Shown: in pieces, positions 26,401-63,298 of the stretch
How the letters are laid out: the number at the start of each line of letters is the position of its first letter
Position numbering within the stretch: position 1 is the stretch's first letter
From: Haplodiscus bocki
Lineage: Eukaryota
DNA: 64,000 nt
Direction: 5' to 3'
Assembly (NCBI GenBank): GCA_965655095.1
Contig: OZ296654.1
Location: 50,902,001-50,966,000 of the forward strand
Program-made: the position numbers and the translations under genes
Notes under the pieces: generated by a model
The model's input: the letters and a program-made list of their open reading frames with translations, nothing else
Told to the model about the DNA's origin: nothing
Database searches by the model: none

Positions 26401-27093
26401 AAGACGTCAACCATTACCCCGGGACAGTCTTGTAATGGAAAATCCAGGAAAGGCCTCCGTAAGACAAATTTCCGGATTTGGAGGTTTTTGGGCGGAGTGA
26501 AACATTCAAAAATACAGTGATACGATTTAAATTTCATATCGAAGTTCTCTGAAACGTTCTTTTAACAGAAAGATAACAACGTCATGCTTGTTCATCCTAG
26601 AGCTGCTTTTCTTGTATCCCTCTTTTGATTTCTTTCCAAGAATAAATTAGTGTATCCGTCTAGATGTGGAAATCGAAGAAAATGAAATTTGGATTGTTAA
26701 TTCAATTATTTAGTTTTCTCTAAGTAGAGCTTTACTCCGTGAGAAAGAGTTTTTTCGGGAGTGCAACAGACCTTTTCTTTGGCATTTCAACAAGAGTGAG
26801 CATGAAATTCTCCTTAGCTGTTTGCAAGCTCATCACAACGATTTTTCAATACTTTTGTCAATCTGGTCGTTTTACTGGAACTCTCAACTATGTTCCTGCG
26901 TTTCTGCTGGTTGGCTAGTTCCCCCTTATTGATCGCTTCGTCTTTTTTTCATGATGTTGTGTTCGACTATCCATACAGAAACCTTCAATTTATTCAATTG
27001 TATTTTGTTTCAAGAGAACTTTTTCTTCTTCCTATCGTTCTCCAATGCTCCTTGCAGCTTTTTATCCTGCCGTCCTAATTCATTTTGAAAGAG

Positions 27094-27683
27094 AGTAGTG
27101 TACAAAAAGCATATGACACCAGCCGCGCCTGCCGCACATTTTAACAAAAAATAAAAAAAATAATAAATCCATAGCAGAGTCCCTACACAGGGGTATAATT
27201 ATAAAACAAAACATAAAAAATAAAATCTAACTACTTATCAACGGGGTAGCACAAGTTATAAAAAAATTAGGTGAAATTATAAAGTTTTGTTGAATTATAA
27301 ACTCCTGATAAATTAAAAAATTAGGTGAAATTATAACTTATACTTTATCAATTATGTGTATGAATAATAAAAAGAATAATATGAAATATACAAATACCCT
27401 GTGTAGGATAATTCTGCTATGGATTTAATATTTTTTTTTTGTTTTTTGTTAATTTGTGCGATCCCTTGCGACTGATGCCATATACTTTTTTAAACACTAC
27501 TTAGTGGTGAAATTATAAGATTCCTTTTTATTAGATAGAATTCTATCATAACATCTTACATTTCTTTCTCCTCGTAAAATATATTTTTTAGAATTTTCAT
27601 TATTTTTGACATGTCTAGTCTTTTCAATTTTTTCTTTTACTTTTACTACCATTTAATAAAAATAATTCCATGGTATACTTTCA
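27094..27683 (+). repeat. Left TIR of element 1
   Basis: Reverse complement of 41305-41890, with many substitutions. Confidence 0.92.
27497..27652 (-). CDS. 51-aa basic micro-ORF inside the TIR (hypothetical)
   Basis: MVVKVKEKIEKTRHVK...YNFTTK; the ATG directly follows the pPolB stop (TAA-ATG); same-length copy at 41336-41491. Confidence 0.4.
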   Translation of the reverse strand: MVVKVKEKIEKTRHVKNNENSKKYILRGERNVRCYDRILSNKKESYNFTTK

Positions 27684-30600
27684 GTTTCATTTATATAACA
27701 TCGTTTTTCATCGAAAATAGATAATGAAGATTTTTTACTTTTGGAAGATACATCTCATGGTTAACAGATCTTAAAATATAATTTTCACATTCTTCTTGAT
27801 AAGTTTCACCTTCTAGACATTTTTTATAATCTTCCAATTTGAAATTTTTCCGTTGACTTTTAGAAAAACTTTTTAATATTATTTTTACTATGATTACCAC
27901 ATTTAAATGCATACACCTTACTTCTTAGACAAATAAGTTCGTCAATCCAAATGTCTGCCGGACTTTTGATTTTGAATTTGCCGATCTTTTGTTTATCTTT
28001 ATTACCAAATATTTTAAGATTTTCATATGAATTACTGAAATCATTTCTATCTCTCAATTTTTTTAAATCTTTGATAATATCTTTTGTATTTACACTTAAC
28101 ATGAAGCTATCAGTATCCATATAGTACAAGTTTAATTTTTTCTGACCAAAATATGGTTGTAGTTTATCATAATATGATTAATCCATTAATAATTTACTCA
28201 ATTCTAACACTAAAACCTAGATAAATCGGTTTATCCGTAAGAATTTCGTTTTTTTTTGAAAGTATAGCCGTCACAATTCTCATATGATTTATGAAAAAGG
28301 GTGAACGTTAACTTAGATTGTTGTTTTATATTTTTATCAGTTTCACCTTTTTATAATGAAATCTGCTTTTAACCGATTACCAACATTTTTCATAGTTTTT
28401 CCATAGAATGCGGTATTTAGTAATTTATAGAAGTCTTCCTCCCTTTCAATTTTAGCTTTATTACCTTATTCAGTACTAAAACATATATATTTTTCCAACC
28501 ACTTATTCTGTCTATATGAAACTATTTCATGAACTTTATCAACCACCATTCCATGTCTAACATAAAATTTTAACAACCTATTATGAAATAATTATTTTTT
28601 TATCAGACCAATCACATGTCAATTTCTTAGTTTGATTATAAGTATCAGGTTTAATTTGTTTCATACAATCACTAAATTATAAGGATTGATTTTTTTTATT
28701 TTCAGGAGCAAATGGAAACTTTTTGATTTTTTCTTTTATATTATCAGGATATTTTAAATCAACTTCAATGAAATAGGCGATATCACTATCATTGGGAATA
28801 CTTGAAACTTCTTCTGATTTAACATTTTTATCAAATTTAACTTCATTGAAGGTAAAGGTTGACTCATAGAATGATCGTATAAATCATTAGCATCTAAAGA
28901 TTTTGTCTTTTTATTTTCATCTGATATAACATATCTATTACCTTTACAGAGCTTATACCACCCCTAATATTATTCTCCAATAACAATATAATTTCTTTAC
29001 TTTGATATGTTTGTAGGTTTATTCCGGTGTGTTTCAAACCACATTGCCAAGTATACCCAGGTGAGCTAACAGAATACAATGGATTAATACCAAATTCATT
29101 CACTGATACTTCTATACCTTTCTCAAAAACACATGAGAGTTATAAAACCTCACTTTTTAAAAGTAGTTGTGTTAGTACTTCTCCATTTTTAATATTAATT
29201 TTTTTGATAATCTCTTTTGTTCTTTTTTTTCTTTGTCACTGGGATAATCACTTTTGAGTTTACTGAAGAAATCTTCTTCCATTAAATTGTGGACAGCTTT
29301 TTGATAATCATCAAGACTATTGAAGCTTTGTTATGGATAAGCAAACTTTTTAGTTAAATACTTCCATTTTTCAGAAAATTCTGTGTCCGAAATTAAATTT
29401 TAAGACCATTTTCTCCCATATAAATAAGTAAAGATTCTTCTTCTTTTATAGTTTGATGTCGAAAATTTTTTTTAGATCTTTAATAGAATCATTACTATAC
29501 CTATCTTTTTTGAATAATATTTTTATTTCATTAACAATACTTAAGAGTTCATCAATATCAACATTTTCTTCTTTCAATTTTTTAAGTGTTTTATGACAAT
29601 CATGAACTAATGTTGTAACTAAAGAACCTAAGCTACTGGATGAAACTTGATAACTATCTGTAAATCTACTAAAACCTTATATAACAAAAGAATATTCTTC
29701 ATTTGTTTTAAGTATATTTTTAAGTTTTACTTTTTTATTTTTTTTATCAACTAACTTTTTGAAAAAATGATGACAATCATAATTTTAAAATTTTGAAAAA
29801 AAATAGTATCAAATGACTTTTGTCTTGAGTAACATTAATATTACAATTACTATGACCTGGAGCTCTATATTTACCTGTTAAGTGACAATGATCTCTAACT
29901 TTATCGGATAATATTTCTTTTTCACAAAATCGATGAATAATATTAGTTTTAACACTTTCTTCATCTTCTTCTGTCATTATGATATATTTCTTAGTGTTTT
30001 TAAAATAGAAAGCCGTTCTATTTTCTATTTTTTTAACCTCATTAAGAAACCAATCTACATTACCATATCGTAAAGGAGATTTATAATAACCACTTTTCAA
30101 AACATCTTCCAATTCAGATATAATAACCATTCAGTCTCGGTTTTTTTTCATCAATATTAGTTGTTTTATTACCTATACTACAATCATCTTTCTCATTATC
30201 AGCTTCAAAATCTGAATATATTGTAAACTATACCAGATTCTTCCGAAAATGTTTTTCCAATGTAGATGAGAATAAGGTGAAGTTCTGATAGTAGGAATAA
30301 TAACTTTTTCACATTTTAGTTCATGTATCTTTAACATATTTTCACTTGTATACAAATTCAAACATTTCTACATATAAGTTTCTTGTTATGATCTTTTAAA
30401 AATACATTTGATTTTTTAATCAGAGCCTAGTCAATTTTGTAAATTAATAAGTCAACAACTCCATCTGATTCGTTTTTACTAACTTCAATAGGAATTAATT
30501 TATGTTTCCATTTATTCTGATCTTGATAAAAGGTTAATTCAAATATAAAAATAGATAAATTATTTATTTCATTAAATTTGTGAACATCACTACATTGGAA

Positions 30601-31484
30601 TCCATTAACGAAATCGAAACCTTGATTGTTCAATTCATTAAAGTATTGTTTATAATTCGAAACTCTATTCGGATGATTGTTTTTACAAGAATGTAAACAA
30701 GCTAAAATTGACAATAAAAAACAATTTCTATCATCATTTCGAATATTCTAGATAGCAGAACTTCTCAAAAAAATTTTACATAACCTAATCCATTCATTTG
30801 AACAATTTTATAAAAGTACACTGTCATGGAATTTATTTTATCAACTCGCCAACCACTATCTTTCATCTCTTGTTGTTGTATTTGTTTTTCTAATGGAGAT
30901 CTAACGTCAATTTTATCAAAATCACTTTCGTTAAATTATGATTGTTATTTAAATTAATGAATAACTCAGTTTCATCTAGTACTTGACTATCTCCATCTTG
31001 TTCATCAAATCTTGTTGAAAAAATTGTTTGATATTTCAATTTATATTGATTTATTAATCCAACACAAATGATAGATAATTCTTTTATGATTTGATTATTA
31101 TAACGATTTTCTATAGCAAATTCAGGATAGTTTGGTTCAATAATTAATTTAGAATTGGCATGATTAATATTATGACTTTCCAGAGTGATTTTAAACCGAC
31201 TTTTAATTTTCTATCGGTAAAGTAATATGGATTAATCATCTTTTTAGCTAATTCTTTGTTTAATTGCTTACCATCTAATTTAATGTTATCTCTTGCTTTT
31301 TGTTTCAATGGTTTAGGATTATACAATTTTTTATATTTCATTTTCAATAGATTCTTGAAACAACCATTCTGGTATTGTCTTATCATTTTTTTTCATTTTC
31401 TAAGTGTTTGTTATTCCTCAATTGTTTTACATAAGAAGCTCTATGAACATCAACATTACAAAATTCACATTTGCGGCTAATCAT
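27653..31484 (-). pseudogene. Protein-primed family B DNA polymerase (pPolB)
   Basis: DANDLY (motif A-like), KLLNTAFYGK (motif B), YMDTDS (motif C), NNIRGGISS, RDHCHLTGKYR; many stops and frameshifts. Confidence 0.95.
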
Positions 31485-31489
31485 TTGAA

Positions 31490-32890
31490 CGTCTCTGTTT
31501 TAATAGTAAGAAATATTTGAAATGATTTATCTGAGATCTTTAAATTGTCTACCTTTACATTACATCATTATTGTTTCGTCCAAGATTTTGATTAGGAGTT
31601 ATAAAATCATTAAAGTTAATATATTCATTTTCATATTCATCACAATTTCTTCATCATCTCCATTTTTAATAACAGTGTAATATAAATCGTAACAATAATT
31701 AATCATATTCTTAACACTAGGCTTACACTGTAAAAATTTCATAAACACTAAAACCTCATGATAAATTTTTCCAATACTTTGAATAATTTTACTAAATGAA
31801 TCTTCTTCAAATTGAAAAGTACCACTTTGTCTTCTATAATTCATTTCGTCATGATATTCACTTATGTTTTAAAAAGTTTTAATTTTATTTTTCCTTTTAA
31901 CTGTTGTAATTTATTAATCATATCTCCTAATGAATTATAAGTAGTTTTAACCATAGAAGAATATATCTCTTTAATCTTTTTGGTAGCATATGGCAATCTA
32001 GTTGATAATGAATGATCTCGCCTAAGAGTTTTTTATCTATCTGATGTTTTTCTTTATGATTATTATATTCACAATTTTTACAATAGTAGCCTTTAACAAA
32101 TTCCAACCAATTATTTCGGTTACAACTAGAACAATAAGGTGGTTTAAATTTAGGTTGTTGAATAATCGATTGTTTATTTTTAGGATAATTTTAAATTTCT
32201 AATTTATCACTGCTATTTTTGTTTACGTTTTGATTTTTCCTAATTTGAGTCTCATTTCGAACTTGATATTGTGTTCTAAGAGGTTGTGGTGGATCTCGTT
32301 TCCGTAAAATAATATTTTCAGTCGGATGATTTTTATATCGATGATCCTTCACATCAACATATTTTTCACCATTAAGAAATTTCATTTAAATGTTTTAAAA
32401 CAGATCCCATCAAATCATAATAATTTATATTCTCATGATGAGATCCATCGTAACAACATATCCATTTCAATAATCTAATACTATCCAGTCCAAATTCATA
32501 GATACCTCTTGCTGACCTTGACCAATATTCTTGTTCAGAATTAGAGTTTTTCTAAGATATCTTTGAATTTATCGACTAAGATTTTGTTTATTTTTAATTT
32601 TTTGTTTTCTAAGGTTGATAAAACTTCGTATGTTTTAATTTAATCATCACTATCATAAATTTTATATACTTCTATACAAATACAAAGAACTTTATATTCT
32701 GCGTATTTTGATCGATTGATAAAATTAATTTGTTTTCTTTGTATTTTAGAGAGTTCATGTCTTCGTTTTATTACATTATATCCACATGAAATGCAAGTAA
32801 AGTCGTGTTTGTTTGGTAGTGACGTATTTCGAGTACAATGCCCACATTGTTTAGCTTATTTTTTATTAATTTCATCTTCTGTTAGTTCAA
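31490..32890 (-). pseudogene. Several decayed accessory ORFs, including a small Zn-ribbon protein
   Basis: ORF fragments 31599-31844 and 32191-32385; CGHC...CISC at about 32640-32890. Confidence 0.5.
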
Positions 32891-32899
32891 TTTGTTTTT

Positions 32900-33771
32900 T
32901 ATTATTTTTTAAAAATAGATTTAGTTCTTTCATAACTTTGTTATTTTCATCAAAAAATAGTTTAGTAGGAAAAAATGAACTTTCATTATATCTCCTGGGT
33001 AGATAGTTGATTCGACATAAAGGAATATTATCGTGAATGACTTCAGTTTTTGTATAGAGCTTATAGCTATAGTTTTTGCTATCACCTTTTGAGAATACCT
33101 TTTTAATATCAGCTGAACGAATTATTTGTTCTAATTTATATTTTGGTTTTTGTTTTACTCTATCATCTCTGTGATTGTCAAACACTAACTTTTCTCTTGT
33201 TTTCTTAGAAGCTTGAATGAGTGTCATTTTTTTGAGCGGTGAATGTTATTATTTCACTTATTTCATTTCTTGGTAACAGATGGTAGTTCAGATGTCCAAT
33301 TAGCGTTACCTTTTAGAACGACTGGTTTTTTTAATAAACTACGTACAGTTCTTCTGACTCGTTCTGCTATGCTAGGACTTTTACCTGTGAATCGAAAGTA
33401 ATGGTGTATGTTTTTACTCTTTAGGAAGTTTTGAAAAATAGAATTATACCGGTCAGATCCTCGATCGCTTTCCAATTTGAATGGTGATCGTTTTGATATT
33501 GATAGAACATTTGAAATTCCTTGGGTTTTTGTTTGACTATTTTTATTTTTCAGTGGTATACACCATAAGTGTTTACTGAAATTATCTGTTATAACAAACA
33601 TATATCTATATCATTTTTTCTTTGAATTTTGTAATCTGAAAAATCTGCTAAATCAATACTCCAGATTTCATTATTATGTTTGGACACTATTCGTTTGGCT
33701 GGATAATTTCTCCTAGGTGGAGTACTGTATATTTCATCAATGAACATTTTGATATTATCCTTCTACGACAT
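32900..33771 (-). pseudogene. Retroviral-like (rve) DDE integrase
   Basis: WSIDLAD / ESDRGS / IAERVRRT catalytic triad positions; C-terminal FSKG..NYS motif; frameshifted. Confidence 0.93.
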
Positions 33772-34424
33772 TTAATTTGATAATTTGATATGCCTTAATG
33801 AGTTGTAATTGATAATCTAAGAAATTAAATTTAATCCCTTTTCGTTGATGATCCTGTTTGAGAAGTGATTGTTTTTTTCCAATTGAAAGCTTCTTTTAAC
33901 TCTTCGTCTTTAGACACATCAAATAAACAAACAGCCCTTTTGTGGTCAATCTCAATATTTGTCCAATTCATCTCTGGAGTCATCTTCCACTCAATCCATT
34001 TTCGATAGGTTTCTGTATCAATACCTAAAATATCTAATGTAGAAGATGATTTTGATTTACCATTCAATGCATGATGGATTCTTCGTCTTCTGTTACGAAT
34101 CAATCGAAAGTTACCATCTGTTTTTCTTCTATTTCTTTCATAAATAATTTGGTTTTCGATTATCAAATCACGATTCTCATCAAAATATTTTTTCTGTTGT
34201 TTGCGTATTTTTTCTCTATTATCTTCATTATATTGTTTCTTATGATTTTAATTTTATTCACTTTTTTTGTCTCTCCATTTTTTCTGTTCAGTGCTACAAC
34301 ACTATACACATTCACTCCTATATTGTCCATTGGTGTTTCTAAAATGAAAATTTGTTTTCATTTTTACACTTCCACATTCAGAACAGAGTTTTTTAATCTG
34401 ACTTTCTACAATTTGGTTATTCAT
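33755..34424 (-). pseudogene. Zn-finger + HNH-type endonuclease
   Basis: N-terminal CSEC...(C)xxC; C-terminal LG...MTPEMNWTNIEIDH...FD...AFNW and, after a frameshift, QSLLKQDHQRKG; resembles viral HNH/endonuclease-VII-like proteins. Confidence 0.7.
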
Positions 34425-34458
34425 TTACTTAGTATATTATCTTTGAAATAAATTATAT

Positions 34459-34882
34459 CACATCATTCTCAATCTAAATCCATTACCATGAAGATCTGGT
34501 AAATTTGAATTTTTCCACCTGTTATTGATTTTGAAATATTATTCGCTCTATGAGCTAACTGCGGATTCTTTTTTCTTAAAGCTACAGCGGACGATATCAA
34601 TGGTGTTGCCATTTTTGAACCTCGTTCAAAAAATTTAACCCAAGCTTTTTTTGCTCCTCTGAAAAATGCTTCGAATTTACTTTTCATTGATCCACTCTCG
34701 AGCATATATTGGCGTGGTGTGAAGATAAATGTCTTCTGACAATTACATTTAGGATTAGGACATTTAATAAGTAGTTTTAATATATCACTTTTTTTAAAGT
34801 CACACCACGCTGAGTTTGACATAGATGAACAACGATTATTCTTGCAATTTCCTTTTTTGAAATTATCTTCGCTTTTAGTCAT
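34459..34882 (-). pseudogene. Cys-rich/basic putative virion protein with an amphipathic helix and adenain-type cleavage sites
   Basis: SMKSKFEAFFRGAKKAWVKFF helix; ITGG; frameshifted C-terminus LHGNGFRLRMM. Confidence 0.5.
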
Positions 34883-35097
34883 TTACTTTGTAAAATTTTG
34901 TGAATTTGTTTCCTCCACAAATACTACAAGTACATTTTATGATTTTAGCAAGTTTTTTAGTCTTAGTGTTTTACTTTTTTTTATACAAATTGACTTATTG
35001 TCTGGCTATAATGGCAACCTCCCAAACAAGAGCTTCGATTTGATATCAATTTTTTAACAAAATTTATTCGTATAAAAGAGGAGCACTCAGAGACTAA

Positions 35098-35761
35098 TCA
35101 ATATTTTTCTCTTTTTAGGTATAAAAAGTTAAAATTATTTTTTATGTTTATGTTCACATTATTTCCGCTAAAATTATTTATTTCAGTTATTTGTTCTTTA
35201 CTGAAAATATCTTTATTCATAACATCACCGAAAACATCTTCAACTTTCAATCCAGTGTCTTTCATAATTTCTTTTCTTTTATCAAGGTAGTGAACAAAAA
35301 TCATTTTTAGTTCTTCAGCTTCTTTTTCATCAATTCTTTTATCTATCATCGATTGTTCTGAAGTTTTCTCGTATAACAATGTAATGACATTAAGCCAATC
35401 TTGTCGCTTTGTATATCGTATTCTCATTTTACTATTATTTTCGTTGGCTTTTAATATAGCAATACTAAATAGTAAAGCAGTACTACTCGATTTAATATTA
35501 CCAGCACCAGGATTAATCAAACCCATACTTAAAGTTCCAACTGTCGAAGCACTACCATCAAGAATTTCAGTGATAACTAACAATACTTTGTTTTTTTAAA
35601 ACTATTATACTTCTTATAATCTTCATTATCACTTTTAGGTGATTTTAAAATTTTTTCATGATCGTGTTTATCCATTTGACATTTTAAGTTTTTAATTTCG
35701 TAATTCTTGTTTTTATCCTCGATAAATCTGGTTCATTATTCAAATTGGATAGTGTACTCAT
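35098..35761 (-). pseudogene. Polinton-type membrane protein (hydrophobic hairpin followed by D..I...E motif)
   Basis: Hydrophobic segment LVITEILDGS...ALLFSIAIL followed by SMIDKRIDEKEAEEL. Confidence 0.5.
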
Positions 35762-36169
35762 TTTTAATTAAAAAACTGTTTTTCTAACAGATCCATTGCA
35801 ACATACTCCTTAAGATTCCGCTGAAGAAATGTTTTTTTTTCAAGAGCAGTATCTTTTATTATACTCACTTCGTTATCAGTAAATCTAAATTATTTCAATA
35901 TATCAAGTTCTGCTAGGCTCAGTTTTAAAGTAGGAGCTTTTTCGTATCTGACATTTTCAAAGAGATTGGAAACGAAATCTTTCATTTACTTCTTCAAAAT
36001 CTTTTCAAAAATACCTTCTTCTTGATTTTTAACTTAAGATAAGTTTTTTTTCATGTTGTTCAAAAAATGTATTTTTAGACTCTAAAGATATTTGTTCAGT
36101 AGCAATTTTACTGAATCCTATTTCCTATAAAATTTTTTCAGCATCTTTAATTAAAAATATTATTGAAAC

Positions 36170-36585
36170 AATCTTTCTATAATCCTTAATTGATTCGTAC
36201 ATATGGTAATATAGTAATAATTTATTCTTTCAATTAAAAAGAAAAAATATAAACAATATGAACCACATGATTTAGAATTTGTATCTTGTGTTTTATAATT
36301 ATGATATATTTTCTGTTTAGGTAATTGAGTTAGTAAAAATTTATCAGGAGCTCCACCAAAACTATCACATTATTAGGATTTGTTATCTTTTATTTTAAAA
36401 CAAGTCCAATGAGTTCCACCATGACTACCATTATCTATAATTACGAATCCTTTGTCTGAAAAAATTGTTGAATCTCTGGAATGTATAGGATAATCATAAA
36501 CTCTTTGTAAATTATTTCCTTCATAATATTTTTTTTAAAGTATATTTTTTTTCGTAAAATCTTCAAAATTTAATAGTTTCGTTTT
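36170..36585 (-). pseudogene. Adenain-like (C5) cysteine protease
   Basis: Hand translation GGTHWTCF...DSFGG...QDTNSKSCGSYCLYFF gives His, Asp, Gln and Cys; in-frame stops. Confidence 0.92.
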
Positions 36586-36590
36586 AATAT

Positions 36591-37873
36591 TTATTTACCT
36601 TCTATTATCTTATTTGCATCTGAAATCATTTCAATTTGTCTATGTCTGATTAATATAACAAATAACATCGCATTAACATTAGCAGGATCAGTATTAAATT
36701 CTTCAAACAGTTGAATTTTTTGGGAGTTATTTGATCTACTTGATTTCTAAGATCTTTTACTTGAACAGGATATTTGTTTTGCATGTCATTATAACTTATA
36801 AAAGGATTCATCAATTCTTCTCTAACGTATTCTTTATATAAAAATTTTAGGTCTCTTTATTGATCTAGATAATCTTTTCCGGGAAAATTTGAGAGAACAG
36901 CGTCCTTTGGATATCTATAACCATCTCTTTCAATAAAAAGATTTTTTTCCATTGACATTATCGAAAATTGGTATATTGGTATTTTTTTATCAGGTGCAGC
37001 TATTCTATCAGCTGCTTGAAAACTAGCGACCAAACTTTTGGGACTATTAACATGTTGGGCAGCACCAAAATCGACTTGAAGTTCATTACCATCTGTTGAT
37101 AGTTTACGTTCTGTATACCATGAATCACATGTGCTTATATAACTATTTTTATTAGATTCATTAAACATAACTTGTGTTTCAGTATTTGGAATCAATATAG
37201 GGACAAACAAATATAAACTATTAACTGTCACAGTAATATCATCACCTACTGTTGTGAATATAAAATCTTGTAAGTCATTTGTTCTAAACGTTAAATGAAA
37301 ACCAAGGTTTTTAGTAACCTTTTTAAAAGTTTAACAAAAACCATATATATGTTCTAAAGGAAGTTGACTTTTAATTTTTCCTCGATTGCCTTCTCTGTGA
37401 TTGTTATTAAGCGTTTGTTTTAACGAGGTGTTGTTGCTCCCATTTTGTGTTCCATCAATATTATCGAAATGTGATAACAATTTGCCATCTTTACTAGTTA
37501 AAGCTCTCAAAATGGTGGATAATTGTCCCAAAAAATTGACTTACTCAATCTCCGTGCCTCCGGTAATCGATATTTTTCCTTCCTTAAAACAATATGCGTA
37601 TGCGTTGTTCACCAATCTCAATACTTTGTTTGTAGCAGGATCGCTGGTAAAGTTGAAATTGTTACCAATCGCTTTACGTGATGTTATATCAAAACCAAGA
37701 TGAGAATTACCAATTTGATGATGAATATTTTTTTTACCGAATATGAATTCAACATTTTGATCAGGGTCGTTCAATAAAGCAGCTTGTTGATGATATATTT
37801 TCAAAAAATCTCGTTTTACAATAGAATTATCAATTGGTTTGTTATCTATTAATTGATAATCTTCTAAGTTCTT
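36591..37873 (-). pseudogene. Major capsid protein (double jelly-roll type)
   Basis: About 425 codons across ORF fragments 37541, 37331 and 36857; LVNNAYAYCFKE, LPLEHIYGFC, DGYRYP; position beside the protease. Confidence 0.8.
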
Positions 37874-38024
37874 TATATACTGAAAAACCGGATCCTGATA
37901 ATAGTTTCTGTTTAAATGCTTGTAGATGTGGAAGTAATGATTGTTTAGTAATATTCACTTCTTGTTTAATTTTAGGTTTATTTTTATTAGTATATAATTT
38001 CGATTTTCTTAGTGTTTCAAGCAT
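37842..38024 (-). CDS. Small basic protein with a C-terminal LSGSG adenain-type site
   Basis: ORF track, 60 aa, between the minor and major capsid genes. Confidence 0.45.
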   Translation of the reverse strand: MLETLRKSKLYTNKNKPKIKQEVNITKQSLLPHLQAFKQKLLSGSGFSVYKELRRLSINR

Positions 38025-38039
38025 TTATTATGTTAAAAT

Positions 38040-38826
38040 TCAAATTTCCTTGATTGATAATCTAAAAGAGATACTTTAACCGTTGAATGATACCAATTCG
38101 TTCTTTTCATTTAAAAATTTGAAAGCAATGTTTGAAATAACATCTTTCGTTTCTGCCATATACCAAGTAATGCCTCCCGAAAATTTTTCTACATATTTAA
38201 AATCAGGATCAACTGTTAATGTCCAATTATGTATGATACCACTTCTCCTACCTTTGAAAATCATTCCTCTAGCAATATCACATTCAAGAAAAATTTTATC
38301 AAATGATAAGGTATCAACAGGATTGGGTGATAGATTATATTCTTTGTATAAATTAGTCTCATGAAAACCTAGAAGATTTATAATACTAATATCAAACCCA
38401 AAACTGACTATGGGTCCTTGAGGTGATGTTTCTATAACACTACCTAATGTACTAAAATTTGGATTTATCGTGAACGGATATTCATCTTCAGTATAATGAC
38501 CTTAATCAAAAACAATCATTTTAATTTCTAAACTCAGGCTTTCTATTTCGTAAGCACCTAGAGGTATAGTAATTTGAAAAAAAAACTTCTTCGTTAGTAA
38601 TTGTTTTCTTGAAATAGAACTTAATATTTGAATTTTTTACATTGAAAATGCCGTTATATCCAGTTAGAAAGTTCACAGCTATTTTAAATTGTTTATCATT
38701 AGTTTGTAATGCTTGAGATAAATGCTCTTCGTGTGTACTTTTGTGCATAACTATTAACTTAAGCTCTTCGATTTTAGGTCTTGTATTAAATGCTGTTTGT
38801 TCTAGTAACTTACTGGGAAGTTCTAT
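38040..38826 (-). pseudogene. Minor capsid protein (penton-like)
   Basis: IPLGAYEIESL, DKIFLECDIARG, LNEKNELVSFNG pattern typical of Polinton minor capsid proteins; about 260 codons. Confidence 0.75.
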
Positions 38827-38829
38827 TTT

Positions 38830-39683
38830 TTATGTTCGAAATTTTTTAAGAGCATTTAGATTTTGCTGTTTGTTTTGTATTTCACCTCTTCTATATATTT
38901 CATCTAATAAATTGCTTGCTTCTGTGAGAGTAACGGTTTGGCCCAATAATTTTCATCCCAGTAAGTTTTCGAATCTAGTGTAGATAGCAATTATGTTTGA
39001 AGGTAAGACAGTTTTTACTCCATGTCCTTCCAAATCAGATGTTTTCACACGTTTTTTAAAATTGGTTTTCGATTGTTCATTTCCACTTGACTTAGATTCA
39101 GCAGGTATTGCTTTATAGTTCTCAAAATCGAAACTTTGTAAAATATTGATAAATATTTCATTGTCTTTATCATTTGTTTTTTTCAGAGGTATGTTAGATG
39201 TATCGGTTATTACTTTTTGAATACCTCGAGTTATATTACTTTTTTTAACGTTGATTTCTACTTCTGTTCCACCTGATATTTTAACAGGATAGCCATTCCA
39301 CATCCATCCGTGTTCTCGGTCTCCAAATGTTCGAAAGAAACCAGTTTTCTTTTTTATATTCTTTAATGTATTTTCTAATTCTGCATCATTTGTCACACCT
39401 TCAATTTTTTTGACTGGTTGATGAGGTTGTGTGTGTTCAATAGCTGGTTGAGGTTTATTATTTTCACGTTGTGATTTTTCATTTACTTCTCCTAATTTTT
39501 GATTGGTTTCTTTTACTTCATATTTTTTTTAGTGTCAGATGATAAGCTTTCTGCTAATTTCACATCATGAGTTTGTCTTAAAATTCTTTTTTTAATTTTA
39601 GGAGCTCGTTGATTTTTCGGTTGTTCTCCTAAGTTTCTTAAATTATTTAAATCCTGTTCAGTTGCAATAGAATAAATATTCAT
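38830..39683 (-). pseudogene. Conserved Polinton (PZ/core-like) protein
   Basis: C-terminal LEGHG...LPSNIIAIYTRFENLLG...EASNLLDEIYRRGEI motif. Confidence 0.55.
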
Positions 39684-39692
39684 TTAGTTACT

Positions 39693-39851
39693 TTAAAACG
39701 TTGAGCTATCTGGTACGAATTTTGAATTTAATCCTAATCTATAACGTCCAGTATATTTATCTTTAGTCATATCAATAGTGAGTGGTCGATATTTTTCATT
39801 CCAACAAGTGCTAGTCAGGTAGTTGAACTCGTTGAGATTCATATCCATGGA
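39693..39851 (-). pseudogene. C-terminal fragment of the A32-like packaging ATPase
   Basis: MDMNLNEFNYLTSTCWNEKYRPLTIDMTKDKYTGRYRLG; Walker motifs absent. Confidence 0.7.
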
Positions 39852-41326
39852 AGATTATTTATCACATAACTTAAATGAAATTATTCATTCATTCATTCTA
39901 TTTGAAAACCAATTAATAAATGGATGATTTTTATGAATGTAATTAAAAGAGATCCAAAAGTACAAACAAAAATAAAAGATATGTTACAAAAAATTAATAG
40001 AGAACCTTTTAATTATCAATCAAAAATAGGATATGACACTTTGATTCAGACTGTTTTTCGCGAAAAAATGATAAAATCAATGGCTACTACAATAGTAGAT
40101 ATAGACGAAGAATTGAAAGTGAAAACTAGTAGAATAGATTATTTGGAAAGTAAAACAAAACATCATTGAAAATTTTATATTATAAATGGAAGAATGTATA
40201 ATCTGCCTAACTAAAATAAAAAGCTAAACAAAATTAAACATGAACAATCAGAAAAACATAGATCTTTCTCAAATCTGATTATAAAAAAATGCATTGTAAG
40301 AAAACCCGAAATTGATAAATTGAAAAATATCATTCAACCATGCAATAATAATCATGAAAAGAAGTTTGATAACTTTACTGTTTATGTTATGTGGAAGAAA
40401 AATGATGTACTTATAAATAATGTTTTTGTTCCGAGCACAATTACAATAGAGAAACCACATTTGTCTAAGTCAAGCATTATCGGATTGCCAATAGTAGTAA
40501 GAGTGTTGCCTTTGGATTTTCTAGATACTTTTGATAGGAATATAAGCAACGAAGTTGATGAAATAAAAACAATATCCATATCCGATCTTACAGATATTAC
40601 ATTTTTTCATTATATGGATCAACCGAAATCAATGCTTTGTAGAAAACTAGTAAAGAATTTTATTGAAAAAGACTTTGGGGATTTTGATTATAAGTGGTTT
40701 CCAAAAGGCTTTAGACACATAAATACTTAAGGTAAACTAATTTTTTAATGAGCTATCGAATGATATATCAAACGCTAAGCTGGCGTAAAATTTTATAGTC
40801 TCTACATGTTTAAGCAAAAAGGAGTTGAGTGCAAAAATATCACTGACGAAGTTTGATGTCTACTTAGACATTGAAAATTACGTAATTTTATACGAAATGA
40901 AAACAAAAAACATAGGCATGTGCATATAGACATACCTATGGTAAACTAGAAACCCATCGGGAATCCGTTGCCCTAGTAATTTCCACAGCAGGGATCAGAC
41001 TTTTCAAGAACTGTGCATTTGGTGATTATCCTCCTATGGCATGTGAGATATAACAAAGACGGTGAGACGTTGGCTACTCGTGAACCACAAACACGACGAC
41101 TATGCAATCAAGCACAGCCCTAACTTTAGTCAATGCTTTTACCACTAAGCCATAGGAGGCAAAATAGAAAGAGAGAAACTAGAATAAATATACATACTTT
41201 AAACATGTAGACATTACAAAAGTTTCAGATAAACCTACATTTGATAAACCTCTTGACTTAGAGATCACGGAATTTGAATATCACTATGATCAGACACACA
41301 CAGGTGAAATTATACCATGGAGTTAA
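39847..41326 (+). pseudogene. Three decayed plus-strand accessory ORFs
   Basis: ORF fragments 39924-40169 and 40320-40730, plus a disrupted frame ending GEIIPWS* at 41326. Confidence 0.55.
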
Positions 41327-41890
41327 TATTAAAAAATGGTTGTAAGAGTAAAAGAAAAATTTGAAAAGACTAGACATGTTAAAAACAAGGATAAATCTAA
41401 AAAATATAATTTACCAGGAGAAAGAGATGTGAGATATCATGATAGAATTCTATGTAATAAAAAGGAATCTTAAAATTTCACCACTAAGTAGTGTACAAAA
41501 AAGCATATGACTTCAGTTGCAAGGGATCGCACAATTTAACAAAAAATGAAGAAATAATTGATCCATAGCAGATTTATCCTACACAGGGTATTTGTTTATT
41601 TTAAATTATTTTTTATGTTATTCATACACATGATTGATATAGTATTATTTATAAATACACATAATTTTTTAATTTACCATGAGTTTATAATTTAACATAT
41701 TTTTATAAGTTCACTTAATTTTTATTATAACTTGTGGTACCACGTTGATAAGTAGTTATATTTTATTTTATGTTTTGTTTCGTAATTATACCCCTGTGTA
41801 GGGACTCTTCCATGGATTTTTTGTTTTTCTATTTTTTGTTAAATTGTGCGGCGTGCGCGGCTGGTGTCATATGCTTTTTTGTACACTACT
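41305..41890 (-). repeat. Right TIR of element 1
   Basis: Ends GTCATATGCTTTTTTGTACACTACT, the reverse complement of the left end. Confidence 0.92.
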
Positions 41891-44800
41891 AACGAGTTTC
41901 ATCAGAATTTTTTCTGATTCTCATTTGAACGGTCTCTCTTGCAGCTTCTTCATTGTTCTCTTTCTAAGTCGTTTTGTTCTGCTCTTAAGTAATCAATTGT
42001 TCTCCTCTCTCACTTTTCTCCCATTTCTGCAATTAATCTCGTCTGGACCCGAAAACTTGCTGCATAGGTGCATATTTAGTGATATTTTTCCTTCGTTTCT
42101 ACAAAAAGACATCCTTTTTAGGTAAGAATCCGTCAATAGACACCTTTGTTTGTTATCCACTCCTGTAACAGCAGACGTTTGTTTTAAATCTGTTGCTTTG
42201 GCACAACGGTTCGATCTAAGTTGCCGTCGAACATGAGTCAAACATCAAAAAGTGGTTATGTTGAAACGTCTTTTTGAATAGTTAGCTATAAACACCAAAC
42301 ATATTGTTCTCTTGTCCTGTAACAGTAAAACACTGCAAGCAAAATGGGTCATTTATTGTGAGTGGTCTCGGAGGTCAATTTTTTGAAAAATGGTGATCTT
42401 TCTCGCAGAACTTTTTTTTCGCTTGTTGTTGATCCTAACCTCAAAAAATCCCGACAAGTGTTCACTCTCAAATCTGATTGAGCTCTGTTTTCCGTCTTCA
42501 GTGGATCATTTTTCTTCATTTTCTTTTTTATAGTTTGTATGGGATTGAAATCTGTCCCATGTTTTAGTTGGACCTTTCGCTTCCGTTTATATTTGGTGGC
42601 ATGTTTTCCTAAACCATTGGTTTTTTTCCTTACCCTTCTTGTTGAAATTTTAAGAAAAAAACCACTTCTTTCTAATTCCTTTCAGCTTGATTTTTCATTA
42701 GAAGTGAACGAAGTTGAAAGAGAACATGATCACTTTTCAATTGTTTTTGGCCTTCAAATAACAAATATTCGTAGACATCAAAGAGGGACGTGTTCAAGAA
42801 GAACACGCTTGCTTGTTAATGATATTTTCAACACCACAAGACTTTTTTCCAAAACATAACTCCACATAATTGATTGTTTTCCACTAGCTCGTTAACATCA
42901 TGGCAGTTGTTTTTTTTTATTTTGGAAATCACACATACTATGTTAATGAAAATGAAAGTTTTGATCGAGTGATTTTTAGTCTGACAATGTTTCTCACTTT
43001 TCCCACATTAGTGCTGACGCCGATACTACGAAGAACATACCACCTCAATTCATTTAGCCCAAGAGGTCACAAGTTCAGTTTTTATCAACAAAAACATTTC
43101 CAGATCACACTGAAGTTTTTGCCGAAAATGAAGTGGCTCTCCATATAACGCAAACACAACCATTAGTTAGTCTCATAGAAACATTACTACTTTTTTTAAC
43201 TAAGAACACAATACCCTTCATTTCCCCTCTACTTACGAATTACAAGATCCTTGTTTGAATACTCCGGGAATGAAAACAAAAACTCCATTTGTTTCAGCAA
43301 CGTTGAAACAAACCTGACAGCTTAATTTAACCCACATTAGATCCATTGTTTCTACACCCGCATCTGCAGTTTCAGCCCAGTCTATAGCACAGCATTCACA
43401 TCGAAAATATGAAGTCTTTCCTTCCTTCTAAATACTCTTATAACATCTCCTCGGCAAAATGAAACTTCATACATACAACAACCTGCTCATTACATTCAGT
43501 CTAAAACCAATTCTTCCGCCAAACATTACCAACCAATTTTTACAGTCGACGCCTATTAAATCACATCCCACAAGTACAACTTTTTTTTGATTGTCCGTAA
43601 ATCTTTCGAACAGGTACTAATCTTCCATCATTCAAAAAAGACTCTTTCCTATCAATCTACCCTCCATGAACTAAAGCGACAACTCTAACTTCCGTCTCCA
43701 GATAACTACACAGAGAATCTTCATTTTTCGGTTCATCGAATTGAATATTTTGGGTTAAATCAAGGTCATCCTAACCTAAATCTGCAACCGTAAATTTTCT
43801 TGAATGAATTGAAAACTTTCCCACAGGTTTCACTTTCCTCTGGAAGTATTCAATTTATCAAAGAATTTGAAGATCAGTTTTTTCGATTCATCTGACGAAG
43901 ACTGTTTGAGACTATGAGTTGCCCCTGACCTCAAACGGTTGCTGTTGGCAAGTCTTCAAAAATTCAGAATTGGTTTTAAGAAGATTGCTTCATCAAAATG
44001 GGTCTTCACACGGTGAACCCCTTCAAAAGGATCCACTTTTTTATATTCGCGCAGTATTTTGACGAAAAGATATGCAGTTGAAGTTGATTTGGATCCTAAT
44101 ATTTTCAAATCAAATAATTGATCGATTATTTGAATCGTGACCCCTTGACCCATCAAACCTTCAGTCTCAGATGTAGCATGTGCAAATAAAATTTACAAAT
44201 CAGTGATATAATTAATGTAGGCTTGTGCACATGTTCTTTTCAGTGGAGAGACAACTGCTTTTATTGGATTTTCTGCTGGTGATGAGTTTTTTTCGTTTGT
44301 GTTTAATATGGTCCAATTTGACTTCCAATTTTTTTCACAGATGAATTGCCCTAGTTCTTTAACTTTTTAAAGGATGCAGGTTCAAAGTCACTAAATATTG
44401 GCAGAAACAGAAACTAAAAGAAAAAGTGATGATAAGTTAAACAACTATAAAATGTCATGCTTACTCAGGAAGGCTCAAAATTTTCAAAAAGTCCCGTTCC
44501 CAAACCTTTGGCAAAACTCTTACATGACGAGTAACTACTCTGCCAGAAAAAAATTCAAACTAAATTAAGGAAAATAAAGGCAACCCAACTAAAAGTTGGT
44601 AAAAGCGACTCGAGAAATCAAGATTTAAAAAGACGCAAAAACGCCTCCTGACCTTTGTCGTGACTCAAAATTTCCTTCAAACCCAGTAGAATGTGGTACT
44701 ACATAAATTTCATATACATATTCTCTGAAGTTTTCTAATAACACAAATATATCCATGTCATACTTACTTGCTCTAGACGTATCCTTCCTTCATCTTTCTT

Positions 44801-56965: not shown

Positions 56966-57559
56966 AGTAGTTTAAAATAAGGCATTTGACGCCAAAAGAC
57001 GCGGACGCACCCGTCAACAAAAACTAAAAATTCAAAAATACATAGCAGAGTCCCTACACAGGGGTATAAATATAGAATAAAATAAAATAAAAAATAACCA
57101 CTTATCAATGGGGTAGCACAGGCTATAATAAAATTTAGGTGAAATTGTATATTTAAGTGAAATTATAAAATTATGTTAATTTATAAAGTAATGATAAATT
57201 AAAAAATTTTGTTGAACTATAAAATTAAAATTTAAAAATTAGGTGAAATTGTGAAAGTAGGTGAAATTATAAAATTATGGTAAATCATAGAATTATGTTA
57301 AGTTATAAACTTATGTTAAATTATCCTATATCAAGGATGTGTAAGAATAATCTAAAAAATAATATAAAATATACAAATACCCTGTGTAGGGACTCTGCTA
57401 TGTATTTTTTAATATTTAATTTTTGTTGAAGGGTCCGCTCCTTGTCTTCTGACTTCAAATGCCTTCCTGTACACTGTTATTTGTGAAATTATAAAATTAT
57501 ATTGAGTTAGAACTAAAATTGAATTTATTGAATTTGTAAAGTTAAGTGAAATTAAAAAA

Positions 57560-58056
57560 TCACATACAATTTTTAGTTTTTAAGATTGAACCATTTCCGA
57601 GATGCAAATTGAAAAGGATTTTCCACATCATTGCCTGAATTTTCTACATACTCTCAATTTTTTTAAGGTTCCTCTAAAAAACTGTGTATGACACATCGTT
57701 GTTTGGAACTTTGGAAAATAACCTATGTTTATCTATTGTAAATGCGAATAAAATTTTACTGTTAGTTTGTTTATTTGATAAAAACTAAAACCATTTTGTC
57801 TAGCAACTTTTAATGTTTTATTTAAGTCTAACAAATTCATGCTTTTATCAGAAAGTGTTAAAATGAATATTTCATTAGTAGTGACATTTTTAAGTTTAAT
57901 GTCGTAAATAAATTCATATATAAAATTATGAAAACATTTATTGTGACAATCTCTATAACAACTATTAAACATAGAATCTGTTTTAGTAATGAGTGGGTTA
58001 TCAAATTTATATTCTTTATAACCTATATTTCGTTTTCGATCATTTACTAGTAACAA
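57560..58056 (-). pseudogene. Accessory ORF, weakly similar to 40320-40730 of element 1
   Basis: INKLTVKFYSHL...Y..FQTTMCH compared with DEIKTISISDL...YMDQPKSMLC. Confidence 0.4.
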
Positions 58057-58212
58057 AATATTTGAAATTAAAAAATCTTTTCAATAAAATCATCTCAAAA
58101 GGACTACAATTGGAAAAAAACTCATAATCCTAATGATAATCAACACCAACTCAAAGATACACATGTCCAACATATTTACATTTCAAAATACATACACAGA
58201 GCCATATTTTTT

Positions 58213-61200
58213 TTATTTCCAGGGTAAACTTTTAATAATAATTTCATAACATCATTTATCATCGAATATAGATAATGTTGATTTGTTTAATTTTTGAAAA
58301 TACGTTTCATGGTTAAATGAACGAAGAATGTAAGTATCACATTCTTTTTGATATTTCTCTCCATCTAAACGTTTTCTATTTTCTTGAAATTAATTATGTT
58401 TTGATTGAGATTTAGAAATACTTTTTAATTTGTTTTTAATATCATCTCCACATTTAAACGAATACGTCTCACTTCTTAGACAACAAATTCATCTATCCAA
58501 TTATTCTGACGTGTTTCGTTTTTGGATTTTCCTTTTACTTTTTTGTTTTTATTACTAAACAATTCATGACTCTCATCTAGGTTACTGAACTCTAACATAT
58601 CTTCCAATTTTTGAAGTCTTTGATAATATCTTCTGTATTCACACTGAATACAGTTGCATCGATATCTATATAGTGTAATTGAAAGTTTTCCTGTCCAAAA
58701 TACGGTTGTAATTTATCATAATATGTCTCATACATGTGTAACTTACTTAATTCTAGTACAGCAAACCCCAAATAAATTGGTTTATCCAGCTTAACATAAT
58801 TTTGTCTAAATTAATAACTGTCACAATTTTCATATGATTTAGGAATTCCAGCGAAAGTCAATTTAGACTGTTGCCTTATAATTTTTTTAAATTCATAGTT
58901 TTTAATAAACTCTAGTCTCAAACGATTAAGTACATTTTCGATCGTTTTACCGTAAAATGGGTAATTAAGTAATTTATAGAAGTCTTTTTCAATATCATTT
59001 TCAGCCTATTTTCTTTTTTGTGTATCAAAACTTATAAATGTTTCTAACCACTTATTCTGTTTAAACGAAATTATCTCATGAATTTTATAAACTACCATAC
59101 CATGTCTAACATAAATTTTCAACATCTTCTAAAGAACCAAATAATTCTTTCTATCTGTCCAATCACATATTAGTTTTTTAGCCTTTGCACAGTTGTTAAG
59201 CTGTACATTTTCGTATAATCAATTTACTGAGCGCTAGGAACAGTATTATTTTCAAAACAAAATGGAAAATTCTTTGTGTTTTGTTTCATATTTTCAGGAT
59301 AACTTAAATCAACTTCAATAAATTAATCAATACCATTATCATAGAGAGTATTTAAAATTGCTTCTAATTTATGCATATAAAGATCTGGATGACCATGCCA
59401 CATCTCAATTTCATCATAAGTTAAAGTTTGAATCATAGAATGTCCATATATATTAGTAGCATCCATATAATTTATCTTTTTATTTTACTCTGATTTTACA
59501 TAACGATCTCCCATTAGAGAGCTTATGCCACCACGTATATTATTTTCTAATGTTAAATTTAAATCTTTATCCACAAGCGTTTGTAAGTTTCTTCCTGTAT
59601 ATCTTAGACCACATTGTTTTGTATAACCTGGTAGAGAAACACGATACGAAGGGCTGATACCAAATTCGTTAATTGATACCTTTTTAAACTTCTCAAACAC
59701 ACATGCAATTAATAAAACATCACTTTTCAATTATAGATGTGTTATATCTTCTCCATTTTTAATTTTAAACAATTTGATAACTTCTTCTGTTCTTCTCAAT
59801 TCTTCATCACAAGGTTGATCGTTTTTTAATTTACTGAAGAAGACTTTTTTCTTTAAATTGTCAACAGCTTTTTGATAATCATCAAGAGTATTGAAAATTT
59901 CATATGTTTATGCTATTTTTTAACAAAATAAGTCCACTTAAAATCAGGAAGTTCTGTTTTTAACATTTTAGGATCATTTTTTCCCGTATATTTAAGTAAA
60001 GGTTTTTCTAATATTATAGTTCCTTCTGTAAATTTTTTTATATCTTTAACAGACTCATTATTATACCTATCTTCTTTAATTAATATTTTTATTTCATTAA
60101 CAATATTTAATAGTTCATCATTATCAACAATTTTTTCTTTCAAATTTTTCAGTGTTTTTTGACTATTATTAACTAATGTTTTAACTAATGAATCTAAGAT
60201 TTTTGACAGAAATCGATAACTATCTTTAAATCCAATACAAGCATATGTAACGGAATTACATTCTTCATTTGTTTTAGGTATAACTTTAAATTTTACTTTA
60301 TCTTTTTTTTATCAACTAACTTTTTGAAAAGTAGATGAAAGTCATAAATACTAAAATTGTGAAACATAAAAGGTATGAAAGTACTTTTATCTTGAGTAAC
60401 ATTATTATTACATTTACTATGAGCTAGACCTCTGTTTTTACCAGTCAAGTGACAACGATCTCTAACTTTACCAGATTCATTAATTGTCTCACAAAAACGG
60501 CAAACATTGTTTTTTCTTTATTCTTCTCCATCTTTCTGTGTCATAATGATATCTTTCTGAGTTTTTTTAAAGCAGAAAACCTCTTTATTCTCTAATTTTA
60601 TATTCTCCTTAACAAACCAATCTACATGATCACATCCTCAAGGAGATTTATAATTACCACTTCTTAAAACATCTTTTCGTTCTGATTCTATATGATTACC
60701 ATTAAGTACCGGATTTTGCTTATAAATATCAGTTGCTTTATCACCTGTTTCAGAATTATGAATTGCATTTTCAGCTTCAAAATCTGCATAGATCCTAAAA
60801 TATAATGGATTCTTATGAAAATGATCTTCCGAATGAAGATGTGCTTCAAGTGATTTTCTAATAGTGGTTATATCATTATTTTCACATTTTGGTTTAAGTA
60901 TCATTAACACATTTTCACTTGTATATGAATTCAAACATCGTCTACATAAAAATTTTTGTGATGATCTCCTAAAGATACATTTAATATTTAAATGAGAGCA
61001 TAATGAATTCTATAGATTGTTAGGCCAATAACTCTATTTTAGTCGGTTTTTTTGATTTCTATAGGAATTAAATTATGTTTCCATCTGTTTTGATCTTGAT
61101 AAAAGTTTAATTCAAAACTGTTAATGGATACTTTAATTCATTTTTCAATTATTTGACCATCACTACACTTAAATCCATTTGTAAAAGCAAAAACTTCAAT

Positions 61201-62096
61201 GTTTAATTCATCAAAATATTGAAATATTTGTATATAATTTCTTACTCTTGATGGATGACTGTTTTCTCAAGGATGTAAATAAGCTAAAATTGACCATAAG
61301 AAACAATAAATAGCCTTATTTTCTAAATTCAAAATAGCGTTTGATCCTAAAGGATTTTTAACATAACTCGATCCGTTTAATTCTCATGTTTTATAAAATC
61401 TGATTTTCATTGAACTAAATTCATGAAATATCCAACCTGATGCCTTTTTTTCTTGAATTTGAAATGGATGTTCTAAATGAGATTTAACATCAATATTATT
61501 AATATCAGACTCTGTTAAACTATATTTAATATTCAAATTATTAAATAATTCAGTTTCATCAATGTTCTGATCTTCTTCAATAATCTTATAAAAGCTAGCT
61601 GAAAGTAATATATGTTATTTGAATTTATATTGATCCATTAATCTAGAGTAAAAAGTTGCCATCTCTTTTACGATTTTATTAATACATCTTGTTTCAATAC
61701 CGAAAACTGGATAAATTGGTGTAATGGTTAAGATAGAATTTGCATGATTAATTTTATGACTTTCTAGAATAATTTTGAAACCTAGTTTTAAATTTTTATT
61801 AATAAATTGTTATGGATTTATCATCTTTTCAGTTAATGCTTTTTCTAATTTTCTATGATTTATTTTGATATTTTCTTTAGCTATCGGTTTTAAAGTTTTA
61901 GCGTTGTGTATCTTTTTTTTGTTGATAGGTTCTTGCTCTTCTTTATATAACCATTCTGGTATAATTTCATCAGTTTGTCTCTTATTCTCCAAATGGTTTT
62001 TTAATTCTCAAGTTTTTTTGCATAGATGCTCTTTGATCATGAACAATACACATTTCACAGTTGCAATATTTCACAACAATTGCAGCTGTTTTTCAT
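58213..62096 (-). pseudogene. Protein-primed family B DNA polymerase (pPolB), element 2
   Basis: DATNIYGHSM, KLLNYPFYGK, YIDIDA (degenerate DTDS), KSDVLL..VFEKF, NNIRGGISS; colinear with element 1 pPolB. Confidence 0.93.
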
Positions 62097-62169
62097 TTTT
62101 GCAGTTCTATTTATGTAGTATTATTTATTTTGAATTAAAAAACACTTCAAATAAAAATATGATAAAGAA

Positions 62170-62469
62170 ATGGAAAGAAAAATTTGCACTCATTGTTATG
62201 TGGAAAATATGTTTGCAGGTTTTAGCAACAAACATACAGAATGTAAAATTTGTAATAGTAATAGAGTTTTGAAATGTTATCATGAAAACAAAGGTAAAAT
62301 ATCAAATCAACGAAAACTATATTATGAAAAAAAAGGTATAAACTATTACAAAAACAAAAAATTAGATATATAAATTATAAACAATTACGTAGGTCCTATG
62401 TTGAATTACAAAAGAAACTAAAAGCAATGGAAGAAAAATTCACACTAAACAAGTCAGAAATCAAATAAA
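62170..62469 (+). pseudogene. Small Zn-finger protein (CxxC...CxxC + basic helix)
   Basis: CTHC...CKIC...YHENKGKISNQRKLYY. Confidence 0.6.
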
Positions 62470-63298
62470 CTTTTTGTAAACGAAATTTATAGCAAACCGG
62501 CCAGAAAGCATTATCCCTCACACAAAACTGATGTAGTCATATCGATGCCATTTGGTCTTTGTATTTTTTAGACCTCAAAGATTATGGTCCTGGAAATAAT
62601 AGAGGATATAGATATGTTTTAGTTATCAAAAACAATTTCTCAAAATTTGTTTGGACAGTCCCTCTCGAAAATCAAAATGCTCAAACAATAAAAGACTCTT
62701 TCGGAAATATTCTCAAAAGTTCAAAAAGAAACCAAAGTTAATCGCAACAGATCGAGGTAAGGAATTTTATAACAGTTTTATTGAAAATATCCTAATTAAC
62801 AATAACATTAAGCATTATTCTGGAAACACATCCTTAGGAGCTGTTTTTGCGGAAAGATTCAATTGTACTATAAGAGATCTTCCTAAAAAACCTGTTTTTG
62901 AGAAAGTTAATTGGAATTAGGTTGATGTTTTATCAATAACACACAAACAATAGAATAATAGAATTCATTTTTCTACTAAACTAACTCCTATCGAATCTTC
63001 TTTAAGAAAGAACGAAAGATATGTTTATCTTAATTTATTAGACAAACGGAAGAAAAAAAAACCAAAATTTCAAGTAAACAACCTCGTTTGAGTTGGTGAT
63101 CTAGGAAAAACGTTCTCAAAACGTGATACAACTAATTGGTCTTATTAAGTGTATAAAATTACAGGAATTATTAATGATACAATACCGAGTAATCGCATTG
63201 ATAAGTTACCAGAGCGTTATATCGAAGCCTTGTTGAAAAAGACTGAATTAGCAATGAAGGAAATTAAAGATGTTATGAAAGAATTAAATATCACTTAG
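62450..63298 (+). pseudogene. Retroviral-like (rve) integrase, element 2
   Basis: FSKFVWTVPL, IATDRGKEF, FAERFN; frameshifted. Confidence 0.92.

Follow-up and report, generated by a model that had tools for sequence, protein, structure and literature searches.

Two decayed Polintons in the window

The window, the whole 64-kb stretch of Haplodiscus bocki DNA that was analyzed, contains two Polinton/Maverick elements. Element 1 (27094..41890) is a decayed full-length copy of 14.8 kb, recognized by its pair of terminal inverted repeats (TIRs), its gene remnants, and its flanks. It is bordered by a 6-bp target duplication, AAAGAG on the left (27088..27093, plus strand) and AACGAG on the right (41891..41896, plus strand), whose copies match at five of six positions. 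The left TIR (27094..27683, plus strand; ~590 bp) overlaps the final PolB codons at its inner end, and the right TIR occupies 41305..41890 on the minus strand; over 590 bp they are 87% identical (13% apart), and both have AGTAGT tips. Element 2 (56966..64000) represents a diverged second subfamily and is truncated by the window end.

The gene remnants of element 1 all lie on the minus strand. A protein-primed PolB gene (27668..31484) is broken by numerous stops and frameshifts and contains a weak Endonuclease VII-like insert near 29780-30130. Next comes an rve integrase gene (33027..33750), for which PF00665 gives an E-value of 2e-8, the other E-value of this profile in the window being 9e-4. 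A probable adenovirus-type protease gene (36124..36492) was found by tblastn to an open reading frame (ORF) of L057 whose own match to PF00770 is weak (E 0.043). The double jelly-roll major capsid gene (36728..37636) and the C-terminal part of a packaging ATPase gene (39711..39977) are likewise tied to L057 ORFs, which match PF21738 (E 7e-56) and PF04665 (E 3e-8), respectively. Between them lies a conserved Polinton gene (38043..38588), possibly the minor capsid gene, a name taken from its size and place; a Pfam search with the matching ORF gave no match. For the ORF at 38956-39528, a search yielded no relatives of greater length.

Element 2 retains remnants of PolB (58216..62001, minus strand), the integrase (62532..63274, plus strand, opposite to that of element 1), and the major capsid (63313..63996, minus strand). 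Over PolB, the DNA of the two elements is 73% identical. Past PolB, from 62064 to 64000, element 2 is out of synteny with element 1, and its flipped integrase directly adjoins the capsid gene. Searches found 779 PolB relatives, some with PF03175; the best 120 of the 779 are 64-74% identical.

A protein-primed PolB, a retroviral-type integrase, TIRs, a 6-bp target duplication, a capsid, and a packaging ATPase identify both elements as decayed members of a true Polinton family, with the target duplication, the TIR pair, and the ATPase resting on element 1; the other end of element 2 lies outside the window. Polinton/Maverick TIRs measure 100-1500 bp and carry a short terminal tandem repeat. In extracts of two papers on animal Polintons/Mavericks (polintoviruses, adintoviruses), the likeness extends to the remnants of PolB, rve integrase, capsid, ATPase, and a probable protease and the length of ~15 kb, and also to the TIR, the 6-bp target duplication, and the short terminal tandem repeat (PMC4196379, PMC8097293).

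The family is abundant in the host genome. Summed contig depth, which is not a copy number, runs from thousands to more than 100,000 within the element, compared with 7.5-44 in the flanks. Per run, 273-299 contigs exit the sequence at 41890 into dissimilar flanks (agreement 0.35-0.36). The near-match target duplication and the contigs diverging at this position together mark the outer tip as a real end. These contigs come from four sequencing runs on at most two samples of one study; none of the runs listed as carrying the sequence is an RNA run.

The surrounding host DNA includes a 572-aa ORF (7593-9311) with no Pfam match, for which Atlas leads scoring below 0.9 point, as leads only, to TNRC6/GW182-like RRM proteins of animals. 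It also holds a direct duplication of ~1 kb at 92% identity (564-2093, 3694-4739) and an inverted pair at 71% (47171-47349 with 56314-56486). A host foldback or MITE-like element of ~440 bp with long imperfect arms (16162-16598) is unrelated to the Polinton arms and was set aside by eye.

A nested inverted copy at each end

Each of the three ends in the window consists of an outer arm of ~100 bp, a loop of 197-309 nt, and an inverted inner arm, together termed the cassette. At the left end of element 1, the outer arm with the true terminus AGTAGT (27094..27196, plus strand) is followed by a loop in which conserved blocks flank an 18-bp tandem array (27197..27393, plus strand; array 27261-27333) and by an inner arm flush on the terminal base (27394..27501, minus strand). 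The right end comprises the inner arm (41487..41591, plus strand), the loop (41592..41787, minus strand; array 41643-41725), and the outer arm with the true terminus (41788..41890, minus strand). In element 2, the outer arm (56966..57067, plus strand) leads into a loop that is longer because the 18-bp array has expanded (57068..57376, plus strand; array 57128-57324) and then into an inner arm (57377..57478, minus strand) with a degenerate tip and a loop-side half near-identical to the outer arm. The inner tips sit 408, 404, and ~512 nt from the ends of element 1 left, element 1 right, and element 2, respectively. The loop measures 197 nt in element 1 versus 309 nt in element 2, and the stem is retained. 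In element 1 the TIR extends 180 bp further inward than the cassette.

An earlier note had claimed the three arm pairs, and all were recovered at the positions it gave, with alignment scores (131, 131, and 146) far above shuffled maxima of 47, 52, and 48 (200 shuffles each). Outer and inner arms are identical in 77-83% of aligned columns, namely 85/109 at the left end of element 1, 82/106 at the right, and 85/103 in element 2. The claim that each end can fold alone is borne out in silico at all three ends: single-stranded DNA folds reach -68.4, -69.2, and -80.9 kcal/mol (z -8.5, -10.7, and -10.1), values equaled by 0 of 100 shuffles. The loop is not itself palindromic. That the inner copies include the terminal AGTAGT is true of both ends of element 1, where the inner arm is flush with it, but not of element 2, whose inner arm is in register and differs at 6 of the first 13 positions. 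At the right end of element 1, the first 25 nt are the same in both arms. The inner copies do carry variants of their own, as the note had stated; the block GCAAGGGATCGCAC is common to both inner arms of element 1, and element 2 carries the related ACAAGGAGCGGAC. All six arms carry the 11-nt block CCTACACAGGG without change; it is directed toward the array on either side.

The terminal hairpins of parvoviruses and AAV also fold end by end, in single-stranded genomes with short loops and flip-flop isomers. The self-folding end is shared with the present elements, whereas here no flip is seen: loop orientation is the same at 3/3 ends, too few to exclude flip/flop isomers, and the flipped cassettes suggested earlier do not appear among these window ends. 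Parvovirus-like self-priming, in which the 3' tip would pair flush with the inner arm and be extended inward until a nick at the inner tip restored the end, is decidedly improbable. The flush pairing of the element 1 tip, with its 25 shared nucleotides on the right, suits such priming, and the candidate nuclease would be the Endonuclease VII-like PolB insert, whose Endonuclease_7 matches are weak (E 0.003 for the window PolB and 0.0003 for an intact relative, both below the Pfam cut-off). Resolution should, however, invert the loop and exchange the inner and outer types, contrary to the single orientation observed, and the tip of element 2 is unpaired. Moreover, extracts of one source assign Polinton PolBs a terminal-protein domain and read endonuclease inserts as intein-like invaders (bioRxiv 10.1101/2024.03.18.585575).

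Two other roles proposed for the inner copy fare poorly. As a working second terminus for priming or integrase, it is disfavored by the inner tip of element 2, degenerate at 6/13 positions. A cassette that is, or leaves as, a non-autonomous Polinton of ~400 bp, usable at both ends (a composite or mini-element), is highly implausible. The cassette of element 1, with its two AGTAGT tips, does resemble a miniature element. Yet its flanks are AAAGAG outside and TAGTGG inside at both ends, so its own target duplication is absent, and what lies beyond the inner tip is the same interior sequence on either side; the TIR continues 180 bp beyond it, and no free cassette was seen within the 64-kb window. 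The degenerate inner tip of element 2 weighs against excision as well. No loose contig ends fall at the inner tips among the 24 rows listed (38,784 more exist), but contigs show presence, not absence, so this listing weighs neither way. Contig joints from 41891 to 27508 and from 41888 to 27537, observed in the sequencing runs, are taken to fit other copies in which the inner tip is followed by interior sequence. Annotation is affected too, as programs that search for inverted repeats can mistake such cassettes for MITEs or set element ends at the inner tip.

Several smaller features surround the inner tips. The junction (27494-27507, 41481-41494) reads CACTA-CT-TAGTG, which makes a very small hairpin, possibly a scar left by snap-back during arm copying. 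Its ACCACTA motif is repeated just inside the right TIR (41141-41230), and additional sequence at this place in other copies is suggested by loose contig ends at 41155 and 41195-41199. AATAAA-type signals, hexamers common in this AT-rich DNA, lie 25-46 nt inside each inner tip and, if used, would terminate mRNAs short of the hairpin.

Concerted change of the arms and occurrence elsewhere

The six arms align over 109 columns, of which 55 are invariant. The outer and inner arms of element 2 agree against all four arms of element 1 at 13 columns, and 3 columns strictly separate outer from inner arms; 10 outer/inner differences are fixed in both TIRs of element 1. The arm tree groups by element, placing the arms of element 2 together (support 100/99), and a single inner-arm clade, a hypothesis set before the tree, is rejected (p-AU 0.0067). 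Within this set of six arms from two decayed elements, each with its post-insertion decay, sequence comparison has shown that outer and inner arms evolve in concert. This is the main signal at the locus and goes beyond what the earlier note had claimed.

The homogenization is patchy. The inner tip of element 2 differs from the outer arm at 6/13 positions, compared with 13/90 in the remainder of the arm (p 0.014 in a post hoc Fisher test, with one of the differences perhaps being a 1-nt gap), a pattern indicating that the inner tip is dispensable. Loop and junction blocks remain alignable between the elements, which argues that the cassette arose once and that the arms were later homogenized in patches, at the tip in element 1 and in the loop-side half in element 2. 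The presence of the cassette in both TIRs of element 1 and in a subfamily 73% identical over PolB, with these alignable blocks, upholds the proposal that the design is older than insertion.

Conservation between the two elements is 78-81% in the outer arm, 81-85% in the loop flanks, and 70-73% in the inner arm, falling to 62% over the next 180 nt past the inner tip, a value that may partly reflect a different gene end in element 2. Between the two ends of element 1 itself, the loop flanks are 83-88% identical. Because arm-to-arm conversion cannot maintain the loop flanks, their conservation suggests selection on the cassette. That the loop flanks are the best-conserved part would also fit a cassette acting as duplex, either as inverted protein-binding arms around the AT-rich array (for melting, packaging, or integrase synapsis) or as an excision-marking cruciform, and the 11-nt block facing the array from either side points the same way. 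This duplex reading is very improbable, however, since binding sites would need neither 100-bp symmetry to base 1 nor arm-wide shared subfamily changes. A cruciform whose loop spans 200-300 nt is improbable in double-stranded DNA.

Occurrence outside the window was assessed at loci from a PolB motif scan (28 viral, at least 120 metagenome with flanks for 80, and 28 genome loci); 160/178 had a PolB match. The nested design is not general among the Polinton termini compared: an inner arm is present at one of nine outside termini (8 records). It is missing at both ends of L040, which are verified by its TIR; at the termini of L071, L082, L097, and L065, placed where copies cease aligning at AGTAG; and at L039 and L035, whose termini are contig starts. 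The contig of L040 in IMG/VR (L233/L234) is a complete linear genome of Polinton-like type, 21.6 kb long. Its tip, AGTAGTGTACAAA, is identical to the first 13 nt of element 1 despite a PolB only 34% identical, and the genome has no inner arm.

The exception is L067, an unrelated element that has PolB, an integrase, and intact ORFs; its putative terminus comes from one copy with no target duplication seen. Its inner arm scores 79 against a shuffled maximum of 31. A 57-bp inverted copy (L067:100-231, metagenome contig Ga0049083_10008917) is flush at nt 132, the whole design being contained within 132 nt, and the end folds at -40.7 kcal/mol (z -11.2). Grouping of L067 with the window family on PolB is rejected in a quick tree (p-AU 1.5e-13), so the design arose twice if the L067 terminus is right. 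No inner arm was seen at the putative end of its relative L046, a contig without a second end. Five matches to the L067 tip, none with a PolB, were dismissed as chance. The nested-arm design is thus neither general nor unique.

Other searches added no cases. The terminal pattern had 34 matches in viral contigs, 0/34 similar to the TIR; a 23-nt arm motif had 0 matches in metagenome contigs and 0 in genome contigs; an alignment query against viral contigs found nothing, a phage search gave no match, and no Rfam family came near threshold. Among 36 contig ends screened, most of them not true termini, none scored above 36. The nested-end candidates L100, L140, L091, and L076 were judged by eye, from their position or unlike tips, to be host or inserted foldback elements. 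Twenty stretches of G001, in which element termini are not placeable, were excluded from the terminus count. This 12-Mb genome, filed as 'bacterium', has 99 Polinton-type PolB matches, many in spaced pieces and some as head-to-head copies (L186, L190, L195, L196, L199, L202, L210-L212), and seems to be eukaryotic DNA placed in a bacterial bin.

Eight of nine outside termini without an inner arm mean that Polintons do not need one. This scarcity favors a neutral relic, in which the copies from a single template-switch duplication would have stayed alike because quasi-palindrome correction acted by accident on long-lived single strands, to no advantage of the element. The separate origin in L067, if the terminus there is right, shows that repeated emergence is possible, and conversion is patchy, affecting different arm parts in elements 1 and 2; nearby inverted repeats can homogenize without function. 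Such a relic is nevertheless unlikely, as the cassette persists in two subfamilies and its unpaired loop flanks are as similar between elements as between the two ends of element 1, and more so than PolB DNA.

A proposed fold-back end in protein-primed replication

Extracts of the Polinton literature describe a replication model with one racket-like fold, a single strand closed between the two TIRs (PMC4196379). Panhandles have been invoked for initiation and for homology repair on displaced strands, and direct evidence is described as lacking, also for adenovirus and PRD1, in the consulted part of PMC11886824. The preferred reading of the cassette, with chances about evenly balanced, is a local fold-back that would rebuild, protect, and repair the origin on displaced single strands. 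It may have arisen when a strand-displacing polymerase, at ~300 nt from the end, changed template to the displaced strand, followed it back to the tip, and then rejoined; copying back to the tip would explain why the inner copy halts exactly at base 1.

During protein-primed replication, each end of the displaced strand would fold, as computed, into a stem of ~100 bp closed by a loop of 200-300 nt. At the 3' end, the stem would restore a double-stranded subterminal origin locally and early, before the ends of the 15-kb strand meet. It may also shield the free end and provide a template for re-copying the outer arm. Repeated pairing and re-copying could be what keeps the arms alike. The inner arm would then serve as a pairing partner rather than a working end, and its tip may drift; the few inner-only differences that persist could block initiation or integration at the inner tip. 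Computed duplex energies are -438 kcal/mol for TIR with TIR, -101 for outer arm with outer arm, and -65 to -76 for the local stems. The end-to-end TIR duplex is therefore far more stable, which would make the local stem a kinetic and transient form, an early or alternative state. A further proposal, that the folded 3' end itself primes or initiates the second strand in place of the panhandle, with the PolB nuclease insert resolving the product in a repeatedly evolved hybrid of protein-primed and rolling-hairpin replication, is quite unlikely.

Partial parallels to a fold-back end exist in several systems, as described in extracts of the papers cited. In adenovirus and PRD1, displaced-strand fold-back is proposed both for initiation and as a way to restore end homology (PMC11886824); there the two genome ends pair, whereas here the partner of each end lies 200-300 nt away. 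The 'Rabbit Ears' of Streptomyces telomeres likewise belong to a protein-primed linear replicon in which the 3' tip can pair internally and truncated ends are repaired on a fold-back (PMC5449611). They differ in a 13-bp duplex among short palindromes, an internal origin, and end patching, and the study located repair on the small hairpin of Palindrome I rather than on the Rabbit Ears fold (PMC5449611). In Chlamydomonas reinhardtii mitochondrial DNA, an 86-bp internal repeat copies the outermost sequence and end pairing is proposed, but it forms one arm only, outside a symmetric TIR design, with single-stranded overhangs, and the molecule is not a Polinton (PMC3711419). MULEs with tandem TIRs also duplicate terminal sequence at both ends, with a conserved inner copy diverged at its tip; their copies are tandem, group by position, and move by cut-and-paste, whereas those described here are inverted and group by element (PMC3310237).

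Unlike in described Polintons, each TIR here contains its own first 100 bp a second time, as an inverted copy. Such a copy is not described in the excerpts of the literature examined, which also included PMC8097293, bioRxiv 10.1101/2023.08.22.554363, PMC8363768, PMC12220804, PMC8502044, and bioRxiv 10.1101/2022.07.12.499685; founding papers, Repbase, Dfam, and TIR supplements could hold it. The concerted change of the two arms hints at an end structure so far undescribed in Polintons.

Polinton second-strand copying and the recognition of integrated ends currently rest on models. The co-evolving arms provide a sequence record of ends pairing with, or being re-copied from, each other, and a high-copy family with a self-contained end of 400 nt makes the question testable through counts of end types and short natural templates.
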